Below are positions 42,646 through 47,941 of a stretch of DNA of 64,000 nucleotides, in pieces (the stretch's first letter is position 1; every line of letters starts with the position of its first letter). The position numbers and the translations under genes were made by a program. The notes below the pieces were generated by a model. That model did not search any database and was not told the origin of the DNA. It saw only the letters and a list, made by a program, of their open reading frames with translations. Source of the DNA: Schmidtea polychroa (lineage: Eukaryota); the NCBI GenBank assembly GCA_044892525.1, contig CM097886.1:123194001-123258000 (forward strand), written 5' to 3'.

Positions 42646-45600
42646 CTATCTAGTAAGAGTATCAATTCCACTTAGTTTTGGCATTGGTTCAAGTAAAAAT
42701 CTGGATTCTGGCTCCATTTTACTTTTTATTACACTTTTTCGAAAGCATTTATGTTCTGATTCGCCGTTGCTACTGTCATTGTTATGATCGTCGTTTTTGT
42801 CTTCCGACTGACATGTAGATTCCTCACTTCTCCGGCCATTTCTCAACTGCACTCTTACTCTTGACATTTCTTTAAATTGATGATCTGTAATAAAGAATCT
42901 GGCCAACAATGGAATACAGCCAATAATCAATTTCCATGACCATCCAGATATTGCATATATTCGATGTACTGATAATATCTGTGACACTATCACCTTTGCT
43001 GTTATCACGATTACGTAAATTCCGATTAAGCCTGCACATGCTTGTCCCAAAAACATGAACTTGCCCCAAATCTTTTCCATCGTTTTGTATGTAGCTCGTT
43101 TGAAATGATCAGGTGTTAGCAAATACTCGTAATTTACTTTTCCTTCCCCATTCGGTAATATCGTGTCAATCATTTCTGAAATTACTCGTTCTTTCTTAGA
43201 TGGAAACAACAAATTTCTTTGAGCTTCTTCAATATCCTCGCTTGGGTACAAACCCATTTGTGCCATTTTGTTTAATGATGTGAAATTTATCAGGTATTCT
43301 AGATTTGTTGATTCTAATTTGTCTGGAGTCTTGACTCCACGATAGTCTGGTAAAGCTATCCACGAATCTGTTGCTAATCGGTATAAGGGTGCTAATAATC
43401 TATTACATTGTAAAATCTTTGGTTTAGTTTGTTCATCAAGCAAAATTCTAGTTATCGGTTCCATAAATCGTATCTTTCCACCGAGGCTTACTGGTAATTC
43501 GTTTGTGCATTTTTCATATTTAGTAATTTTCACTGAGACTTCTTTGCATTTGTAACTGTATAACGCTTCTCCAAAAATTCTCGCAAACACGCCACTTTCT
43601 GATATTAGCATAGGTGCTACTAAATTTGGATTCGTAATTGCCATCGCCATTCGATTTCGAAGAATCTCTTTGTTCAGCTTGCAATCGTTTAGAATCATTT
43701 CTCTATATACATTTTCCCTGATGTTTTGACTAAAATGAAACAAATAATCAATTTTATTATTAAAATAATGAGTAAGTTTAATATCATCTCTGTGAATTTT
43801 AATTTTTGCCTCTTCCACAACATTTCTAGGCACATAAACGCCTTTATAATTTGTTACATACACCATTCGACCACATTTGTTGGTGATTTCCTTTTTTACA
43901 AATCGCATGCCATCTTCTGGTAATGTAGACATTAAAATTGTTCCCATTTGTTTTGTCCATATTGGAGTTGACTTAATAGTATCATTTGGTCTATATTTCG
44001 TATTAAAACTATCAGGTTTATCTCTAAACTGTTCTCCCACTAGCTCTTTAAAATTCATAGTTTTTAAGTGTGCTAAATTACACTTATTGGTTTCGACATT
44101 ATAGACAAGAATCGATTCCCCCGTTTGACAATTTGTTTGTTTCATATTACAGAATGGATGTGTTTGTAGCTTTCCCGTATCATCGTCGAAAGCTCCTTCA
44201 AATTCTCTTAACTCTGTTAGATATTCTTCCAGCACAACTGTGTGCTGAACAATTTTACCATTCATTTTGTATGGTTCACCTTCACAATCGCCATTTGCTT
44301 TCATAACTCCTTTTACAATTATTGTTTCTCGTATCCTATGATTCAATTTTGCCTTTAAACGAATTTCCGGACTTATTTTTAATTCTCCGGTTTGAAATGC
44401 TGTTAGACAGTTTTCTGGGAGTACCTCATTTGGCCTAGGTATCGCATGCATTTTTATAAGTGACGTATGACTCCATTTGCCACAATAGAATACAAATGTT
44501 GTATGTTTGACAATACACTCTCTTACTTGAGTTCTTCGTAAATCAGACTCTTGATACACGTAATATTTTATATCATTTTCTATTTTCAGTTTACTAGGAT
44601 ACGCACCTGGGCATTCCGACATATCAACTACTGAATAAATTTTTCCCATTTCAGTTTGGGAGCAATCATATGCAACTAATGATGATGTCTGCGTAATTAT
44701 TGCACAAAATGTAATCATCATAAACATTGCCCACGGAAATATCATAGTTTTTCTCAGTTCTGGTCGAACTCTCTCATTGACTCGTTTTTGAGATGGTTTC
44801 CTCTCTTGATTCTCGTTTTTCTTTTCTGTTAGAGACGAACACAGTGTTCTCCAACCACCATTTTCCTTTACCCAGTTCATTAGATATTCGTTTACTAGTC
44901 TGGCAGCGATGTCTATCAAGTTATCTAATTTATCTGATTTCGCGAACGCATACGTTCCAATTTCTAAAACAATATAAGTTAAAGCTGTTATTATCACATC
45001 CTTGTTAATTTCATTTTTTGTTAAATTTTCAATTACTGATCTCTCGCAAAATGTATCCTCTTCCCCAAATTTCTGTACTACTTCAGGCAGTCTATTTTTC
45101 ATTTCTTTAACTACTCCTTTTAGTTCATCCTTTACTTCTATCTCTATTTCGAACATCGGATATACTGCTTTAACGAGACGTTTCAAAACGTCCTTAGTTT
45201 CGTCTACATCTTGTTCTAACCTCACTAAATATTTCTTTATTTCATATAAAGTTCTAACTTTCTTCTTTTTGCTTTCACCATTTGTTTCGCTTTCTGGTAC
45301 AAGTGGCTCTCCTTGTACTGTTTCTGTAGACTGATCTTTTTTATCCAGCTCCTTCTGATCATCACCACTAACGATTTCCTCAATTTCTTGATTTCCATTT
45401 ACTTCTTCACCTTGTGCTTCTGTGTCAGACTCGCTGGACTTAATCTTGATTTCTAAACTTATTCCCTTTACTACAACTATATGGTTCACTAAATATCCCG
45501 CTCGTCCATCTCGGATCAAACATACATTTTCACCCAGCTCTTGTGGAATACATCCGCAATCATATAAATATTCATCATCATCAAGTTCTTCACCTTTGTA

Positions 45601-46029: not shown

Positions 46030-47941
46030 TTTAATTCATTTCTACTTCCGGGTATAAATCCACAATCTACCAAGAATTCATCGTTTTCTAACGGTCTATC
46101 ATTAAATCTCAATTCTATCATTCCTCCTTCCCGTTTCTCTTTTAATTTAATTTTTAAATCATTCACGCTATCATTTGCCTCACAACGACAACAGATTATA
46201 CTTTTATCAATCTCATCTACTACTTCTACTAAAATGAAATCTAACCCTTTATTTTCCCTTAACATCTTTCCAAACATTTTCATTAATTCCTTAATTTCGT
46301 CTTTATACTTTGGATTCATGTTATAATAGTTAACACACAAGCTAATTACACTTTTTGTCTTTCTTATGCTCAAGGATATTTGACTTAATTCCTTCAACGA
46401 TTTAATTATTTTGGCCGACTCTATTTCATTATTTCCAATTAATTTTTCAATTCTTGTCATAATCATTGTTGCTTTTTCATTTTCTAAGTCATCTTTTATA
46501 ACTTTCTTTTTCAATTCTTCCGGTGCCTCATACATCATATGATTATTATAGTCCTCGTCTGATTCAAACTTTGACATCAATAGATCTAAACGTCGACCCA
46601 TTTCTCTCACTTCGCTTTCAATTCTTTCATTAAAATTATCTGGCCGAACAAAAGCCACATTATCTGTCTGCGGTTTGTCACTTTGAAACCTAATCGACTT
46701 CTTTAATATCGGCCTTTGAAATTTATCCGTATTCCTTGGACATGATCTGGCCATGTGTCCATAACCTCTGCATGAGTGGCACTGAATTTGTCCTTGTAAA
46801 TTTACTTTATCTCTCTGCGGTGATGGTGATGTTGACGTTGATCTTGATCTGGCAAAACAATTTCGTGACATGTGCCCTTTCCTTCCGCAATTATAGCACT
46901 GCAAATTCTCATTATTCCGCTGATCATTGATATTCAATTTGGTGAAACTTTTCCCACCATTTCCTTTTAACCAATCTGGCCACATTTGCCTTGGACTACG
47001 TTGTACATTATTTTTGGACCAGCACTGATTGCTGTCATGACCCATTCTTTGGCAATTATCACACTGAATTGGAATTGGGCTTCTCTGTACTCTATTTTTA
47101 AACCAACATTGGTCAACATAGTGTCCAATCCTTTGACAATGACTACATTGAATAGGGCCTTCTTTTCCATCAATTTGAATATCTGTTGATTTGTTCGACT
47201 GAAATTTTGATCTAAATTTTGGTGATGGACTACTTGTTTGTTGAAACCGATTGTTTTTAGATGGAGTTATTGATCTTTCCCTTTCGCCAGATATGACTGC
47301 AAACGACTCTGATTTTGACTGCGTACTTTTTAAATTCAGCTCAATTTTTATCGCCTTTTTAATCAATTCATCAAAGTCATTAAAATCAACATAACACAAA
47401 GCCTTTTTAATTTCTTTCTTTACTCCGGACAAAAATTGATCCTGTAGCAACTCTTTTACTTGCTTTGCCATCTCAGCCTATTCTGGTTTCACTTCGAATG
47501 CTTTCTCTGCAAGGGTTGTTAAATGATAAGCAAATTCACTTACGGATTCCTCTGACTTTTGTACACGGTTATAGAATTTCTGCCGCATCATCCTTTTTAT
47601 ATCTCCTCCGATTAATTTAGCTGCAAGTGCGTCTTTCAACTTTGTCCAGTCATTTGCTATTAATCTTTTATCAATTTGTTGCCATGCTTCTCTGACTGCT
47701 CCTTTCAGGTATAGCGGTAATCTTTGAACCATTATCGATTGGCTCCATCCATAGGCTGTCGCATACATATAGTAATCTGCCATGAAGTCGACAAATTCCA
47801 ACGGATCCCCCCATACTGATCTACAGGTAGTTTTTGACAACTCGCATAATCACTGCCTTCCTTGCCATTCCCCACAGAAACTGTGGACACGGGTGTTTCA
47901 TCATTATTATTTGTATTATTAACTTGTCTTTGGGTACTCAT
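46023..47941 (-). CDS. gag (capsid-like region, four CCHC knuckles, C-terminal ubiquitin-like module), with one frameshift and one nonsense codon in this copy
   Basis: ATG at 47941. A 1-nt loss in a G-run near 47810 links DQYGG to DPLEFVDFM. RLPLYLKG...KFYNRVQK...E*AEMAKQV...DQFLSGV has an in-frame TAG at 47478-80 where the relative at 13.5 kb has W. The knuckles are CSHC, CDNC, CYNC and CHSC...H...C. Confidence 0.88.

Follow-up and report, generated by a model that had tools for sequence, protein, structure and literature searches.

A duplicated module of a helical bundle and a predicted ubiquitin fold, set between the Gag and Bcl-2-like domains of a compact Burro-like errantivirus from Schmidtea polychroa

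The giant Burro/GYPSM1 Gypsy elements of planarians encode a polyprotein with Ubi2/SUMO-like and BCL2 domains and an in-frame Env (Arkhipova and Yushenova 2019, PMC6431247), and six GAG-ENV-POL elements, Smed_errantivirus_1-6, have been described from Schmidtea mediterranea (Chary and Hayashi, eLife, PMC13524379). Here we analyse a related element on the minus strand of a 64,000-nucleotide stretch of Schmidtea polychroa DNA (assembly GCA_044892525.1, contig CM097886.1, positions 123,194,001 to 123,258,000), hereafter called the window. By its long terminal repeats (LTRs), its primer site and the content and order of its domains it is an Env-bearing Ty3/Gypsy GAG-ENV-POL errantivirus. It is a compact Burro-like element, and it carries a real, selected and duplicated accessory module.

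As far as the available part of the Burro description goes, the two elements share a single polyprotein in which Gag, a ubiquitin-like (Ubl) domain, a Bcl-2-like domain and Env stand in frame ahead of protease (PR), reverse transcriptase (RT), RNase H (RH) and integrase (IN). Burro exceeds 30 kb and encodes 4,873 residues, whereas this element measures ~13 kb from LTR to LTR (one copy) and encodes ~3,400 residues. The MATH, BIR, ankyrin and dUTPase domains of Burro were not matched here in Pfam scans, and the same part of the description gives Burro one Ubl and no helical bundle, whereas the present element has a pair of Ubls, both of them fused to a bundle. Smed_errantivirus_1-6 have in common with this element the Gag-Env-Pol order, an Env of the glycoprotein B (gB) type and many recent copies. 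The window Env is alike to the printed piece of Smed_errantivirus_1 at ~124 of 156 residues (79%, hand count). They are a different family. In the accessible text no tRNA is listed for the six elements, whereas the primer site of this element matches tRNA-Trp. The words 'ubiquitin', 'Bcl-2', 'Burro' and 'polyprotein' do not occur in the accessible main text of PMC13524379, and that of PMC11410931 holds nothing further on these domains. Both this class of element and the presence of a Ubl in this position were therefore already known. For the combined helix-Ubl unit and its duplication, and likewise for any TFIIS-N/LEDGF domain carried by a retroelement, we found no description in the literature searched, although Grohme et al. 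2018 and Repbase may describe more.

The unit consists of a helical bundle followed by a Ubl domain, and lies twice in succession in the window:

46251..46484, minus strand: helical bundle of module 1, with predicted helices at 3-17, 23-34, 40-56 and 58-76 and a weak resemblance to the LEDGF integrase-binding domain (IBD) and the TFIIS-N type
46029..46250, minus strand: Ubl domain of module 1, without di-glycine; the frameshift of the window copy falls at the domain end
45748..45972, minus strand: helical bundle of module 2, matching the module 1 helices by profile (E 4.7e-05)
45463..45747, minus strand: Ubl domain of module 2, with an insertion of ~15 residues ahead of the last strand

Profiles of the two modules aligned to each other at E 4e-12, and in half-by-half profile comparisons 6/6 scored above 60/60 shuffles. 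Family searches of the genome, made stepwise, reached families B to E. Two modules are present in family A (that of the window), in A′, B and C, and in the outside relatives P0001, P0005 and L085; a single module is found in families D and E and, among the outside relatives, in P0002, P0006 and L086. A single-module profile aligned to the two modules at E 1.7e-05 and 1.1e-09, and the helical half gave weak matches to the single-module families (E 0.016 and 0.0094). In a module tree, the module 1 sequences of families A, A′, B and C came together as a single clade (100/99), and their module 2 sequences grouped at 93/91. As each module groups across all four families, the duplication predates them. 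Deeper branches had weak support, with two changes per label, and L086 was labelled module 2 though it has a single module; on this tree, the two-module elements may or may not all go back to a single event. The profile and tree results point to an old tandem duplication of one unit made of a helix bundle and a predicted ubiquitin fold. This agrees with the original prediction, made from the letters of the window, which had described two related helical and ubiquitin-like modules of this origin and had named the pairwise profile alignment as a check.

The modules are under purifying selection. Ratios of nonsynonymous to synonymous substitution (dN/dS) between A and A′ were 0.08-0.25 for the four half-modules and 0.48 for the linker that follows them; between A and C they were 0.17-0.42 and 0.66. 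Taken by half, dN/dS was 0.08 and 0.29 for the module 1 helical bundle, 0.25-0.52 for the module 2 bundle and 0.15-0.37 for the module 2 Ubl; between A and B, synonymous sites were near saturation or past it. Modules 1 and 2 are 17% identical, and their surfaces diverge fast. In every family examined the modules keep to the same place, after the zinc knuckles and before the Bcl-2-like domain and Env.

An HMMER protein search found seven unnamed proteins, all relatives of the helix-Ubl unit. Word-based protein searches gave no match at E 0.001, either with residues 1-430 of the second open reading frame (ORF2) or with the module alignment among longer proteins. None of 58 candidate viral contigs was confirmed as a module carrier, whereas 5 of 330 candidate metagenome contigs were, all from one record series; the ESM Atlas gave no usable feature-level match. 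A host donor gene was not found, and the top SUMO-like genome matches examined (5/150) were BEL/Pao elements without a module-profile match. These BEL/Pao-type frames (DUF1759; L071:1467-5513, L072:2674-6858, L073:1550-5008, L074:1061-5206 and L075:3046-6579) carry one or two near-canonical ubiquitin units before Gag, some together with dual-specificity phosphatase or EAP30 and proteasome-subunit pieces. Their ubiquitin units are a separate capture of ubiquitin.

The original prediction had placed the modules at the C-terminus of gag and the N-terminus of ORF2, on either side of a gene junction. These termini proved to be products of a frameshift in the decayed window copy, which is not a gene boundary, and both modules are internal to one polyprotein. 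Copies were sought by DNA search of the genome (781 Mb, four large contigs); 40 of 574 candidates were scored, all 93-100% alike. Gag and ORF2 were in the same frame in 18/19 other copies, and the junction was free of stops in 17/19. The gag stop of the window, at 47478-47480, was missing from 10/10 other copies, and the stop between Env and PR was absent from 5/6 scorable ones (4/10 were not scorable). In copy L036 a single frame runs from Env through PR, RT, RNase H and integrase. An abundant sister subfamily, ~85% alike, has open frames of >3,000 codons in 21 of the 150 matches scored from 1,785 candidates (hand count), many of them of 3,437 codons. From the shared frame, the missing stops and the long open frames, the native product is thus one polyprotein, in which Gag leads into modules 1 and 2, the acidic linker, the Bcl-2-like domain, the hydrophobic segment, Env and Pol, in that order. 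The Bcl-2-like domain and Env, which come next in the same frame, had been overlooked. The window copy itself is incapable of making this polyprotein. Paired LTRs were 94-99% alike in 3/3 copies compared, which indicates that the family was recently mobile. Two runs that we take to be RNA contain contigs on this region, a single contig in each spanning the junction; these do not amount to a demonstration of transcription.

The remaining features of the element in the window are:

48548..49377, minus strand: 5′ LTR, with ends TGTTGGG...CCCAACA that agree with both ends of other copies
48526..48543, minus strand: primer-binding site, with 18 bases of complementarity to the 3′ end of host tRNA-Trp(CCA)
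48207..48556, minus strand: leader with 70-bp tandem units (repeat family D2)
47481..48064, minus strand: N-terminal/capsid part of Gag (PF03732, E 3.3e-06), in two frames in the window copy
46730..47150, minus strand: nucleocapsid region of Gag with four CCHC zinc knuckles (by sequence; PF00098, E 1.5e-11)
45271..45462, minus strand: acidic, fast-evolving linker (dN/dS as given above)
44800..45270, minus strand: Bcl-2-like domain (PF00452, E 0.0013; profile against PDB Bcl-2, E 2e-05)
44671..44751, minus strand: hydrophobic segment before Env, ORF2 residues 427-453 by hydropathy, a likely signal or anchor
42649..44670, minus strand: gB-type (class III) envelope glycoprotein (PF24664, E 2.1e-85), with a membrane segment at ~42958-43062
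42105..42645, minus strand: aspartyl protease (PF00077, E 5.2e-05), in the frame of Env but after a stop in the window copy

By Pfam, the Gag capsid, the CCHC knuckles and a gB-type Env between the Bcl-2-like domain and PR are all present in the window, where G+C is ~30%. The order PR-RT-RH-IN was seen by Pfam in L036; the window copy ends abruptly at ~42105, past PR, and is without RT, RNase H and integrase. A 3′ LTR for this copy was not found within the window. In L036, ~430 residues follow integrase in the same frame (L036:6820-8130), a hydrophobic stretch and then a region without a Pfam match; the frames of 3,437 codons would have room for such a region. In some copies pol is followed by an additional frame (L036:8652-9998, L030:8876-10000, L026:9010-9888 and L038:8891-10000). 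Two of these weakly match the RNase_T exonuclease family (E ~0.008), and two other copies instead reach the 3′ LTR there. A long tandem array of tRNA-Trp genes with a 284-base period begins at ~55,022,000 on contig C4, with 821 pattern matches genome-wide.

Both Ubl domains lie behind related helical domains. The predicted structure of a helix-Ubl module had a template modelling score (pTM) of 0.84, consistent with a fixed packing of the two halves, and in a fold search the predicted beta-grasp superposed on ubiquitin, as the original prediction had anticipated. Pestivirus ubiquitin inserts were also among the fold-search matches. A single-sequence fold of ORF2 residues 1-430 reached a local confidence (pLDDT) of 35.5 and was not used. 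Just four residues are invariant, Gly72 where the last helix ends and, within the Ubl, Glu136, Gly142 and Asn149; conservation in the Ubl is centred on a D-D-E-[YF]-L-x-D-x-G stretch. A C-terminal di-glycine, which the original prediction had found lacking in both Ubls, is absent from 20/20 module copies. In this the domains resemble the integral (type II) Ubls of Rad23, Dsk2, BAG1 and parkin, beta-grasp domains without di-glycine inside a larger protein. They differ from these in that the Ile44-equivalent residue is not conserved and the domain follows a helical bundle instead of standing at the N-terminus. At the position that we take to be equivalent to Ile44 of ubiquitin, module 1 has R or K, module 2 has M, I or T, and relatives have Y, V, L, E or M (16/18 alignment rows read).

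In the Bcl-2-like domain the Bcl-2 homology motif BH2, W-x4-GGW, was invariant in 6/6 aligned sequences, but the BH1 NWGR signature of the BH3-binding groove was replaced in 6/6, so an anti-apoptotic role is not assured. The hydrophobic segment starts ~30 residues past the BH2 motif. Short multi-copy Bcl-2 frames of ~150-180 codons are also scattered through the genome outside the Env elements, at dozens of sites (for example L059:2706-3161); near one of them lies a weak match to DNA polymerase B (L060).

The helical half, for which the module model has four helices, had been likened to the TFIIS N-terminal domain before any LEDGF search. A PDB profile search with 10 sequences returned only designed or unrelated helices. 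With a 14-sequence profile the LEDGF IBD ranked second (E 0.089), after one small helical protein, and with 17 sequences it ranked first of 177,635 PDB sequences (E 0.04, positions 3-61, below significance), in register from the start of the domain and ungapped over the first 50 positions. According to the part of PMC9987994 available, the LEDGF domain is counted in the TFIIS-N fold; the IBD of LEDGF/p75 (PSIP1) and the TFIIS N-terminal family are, like the helical half here, helical bundles of ~78 residues, though neither is fused to a Ubl within a retroelement. A right-handed bundle, and the binding of TIM motifs or of integrase by way of two pockets and a basic patch, are further marks of this fold. 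Several results weigh against this kinship. A designed helical repeat protein nearly tied with the LEDGF IBD (16.8 against 17.5 bits), and Pfam PF08711 (TFIIS-N) and PF11467 (LEDGF) matched 0/14 helical members. With a host LEDGF-like exon the match was at chance level, the reversed sequence outscoring the true one and 11/100 shuffles doing as well. Only 2/9 host TFIIS-N-type pieces scored above nearly all shuffles, and reversed pieces came close to true ones (10.7 and 9.5, 6.9 and 4.5 bits); a profile match to these pieces (E 0.025) exceeded 100/100 shuffles, with the reversed profile only slightly lower. The TFIIS-N fold is described with five helices (PMC9987994, in the part available) against the four predicted here, and an Atlas structure search with the helical half of a relative returned HEAT/TPR-like and unrelated bundles. 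The fold search reported no match for the helical half, its lists being filled by the Ubl half so that the helical part was barely tested. From module to module, the loop aligned to the LEDGF hairpin differs both in sequence and in length. The proposed TFIIS-N likeness thus stands as a top rank in the PDB and fails on significance and on the reversed host controls. From these comparisons a TFIIS-N-type fold is an evenly balanced call, and descent from a LEDGF-type domain is tentative and rather unlikely. Contig C2 holds a cluster of intronless frames (L066, L067, L069 and L070), more than a dozen in number and similar to one another, that match the TFIIS-N type (PF08711) and look IWS1-like by eye.

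On balance we consider it probable, though by no means certain, that the modules are non-conjugated protein-binding adaptors on the cytosolic side, duplicated and selected between Gag and the Bcl-2-like domain. The hydrophobic segment would start translocation of Env, and signal peptidase would cut at the Env start, leaving Gag, the modules and the Bcl-2-like domain tethered to the membrane on its cytosolic face, like a Bcl-2 tail anchor; the protease of the element could then free the modules. As adaptors or decoys, the helix-Ubl units would most likely engage regulatory proteins of the host. In the most fragile steps of this scheme, the helical half would read short acidic-helical motifs in the manner of a TFIIS-N-type, LEDGF-IBD-like domain, and the unit would act on transcription or defence factors of the host by binding them or as a decoy, its two copies having diverged in partner. 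It counts against the scheme that partner, cleavage and topology are all things we infer. A more specific version, in which a captured IBD of the LEDGF/HDGFL2 type (TFIIS-N) was fused to a ubiquitin fold and duplicated, and binds transcription-elongation factors or the element's own integrase, we regard as unlikely.

Other roles fit the data less well. The Ubl might bind, like those of Rad23, Dsk2 and parkin, to receptors of the proteasome or to an E3 ligase, while the helical half carried host substrates or element proteins to degradation. This idea, quite improbable, is weakened by the variability of the Ile44-equivalent residue, presumably the centre of the docking patch, and conservation is centred on the D-D-E-[YF]-L-x-D-x-G stretch instead. 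A structural job without a host partner, as a folding aid, a spacer from the nucleocapsid to the membrane-anchored Bcl-2-like domain and Env, or a part in particle assembly, would suit the fixed place of the modules and the one rigid unit suggested by the pTM. Most Gypsy elements presumably need no such domain, however, and the variable copy number and the fast surface divergence between copies also speak against such a job, to which we give equally little credence. The rank of the LEDGF IBD in the PDB search, the binding of lentiviral integrases by LEDGF (PMC9987994, in the part available) and the presence of helical domain and integrase in the same polyprotein would accord with a captured IBD that binds the element's own integrase and assembles or aims the integration complex; yet the match is weak, the hairpin-aligned loop is variable and no chromatin-reader domain was found alongside in Pfam scans, which makes this very unlikely. 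Largely refuted are the readings of the Ubl as a pestivirus-like cleavage signal for host deubiquitinases, and of gag and ORF2 as separate genes joined by stop-restart translation. The pestivirus inserts among the fold matches and an ATG that overlaps the gag end in the window would favour them, but the missing di-glycine and the common frame of the other copies stand against both.

Just past the break, window positions 38828-40459 (minus strand) hold frames that by eye we take to resemble a Polinton-type capsid and cysteine protease, the two frames scanned giving no Pfam match. A RING-finger frame followed by two more open frames lies at 60081-61797 (plus strand), and remnants of hAT and IS4/piggyBac-type transposases at 25615-27068 and 7504-8109.

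Ubiquitin-like and Bcl-2-like domains had been recognised before as cargo of planarian retroelements, without a shown job. The present analysis narrows one of these cargoes to a compact unit of 150 residues, present once or twice per element and confidently folded in prediction, so that it should be expressible and testable alone. The unit is conserved in at least six element families of the genome, as well as in relatives drawn from other records. If its helical half is of the LEDGF type, a retroelement would bring its own version of a host module that lentiviruses hijack, the kind that HIV borrows, and this would bear on the choice of integration sites or on the blunting of host transcription control.
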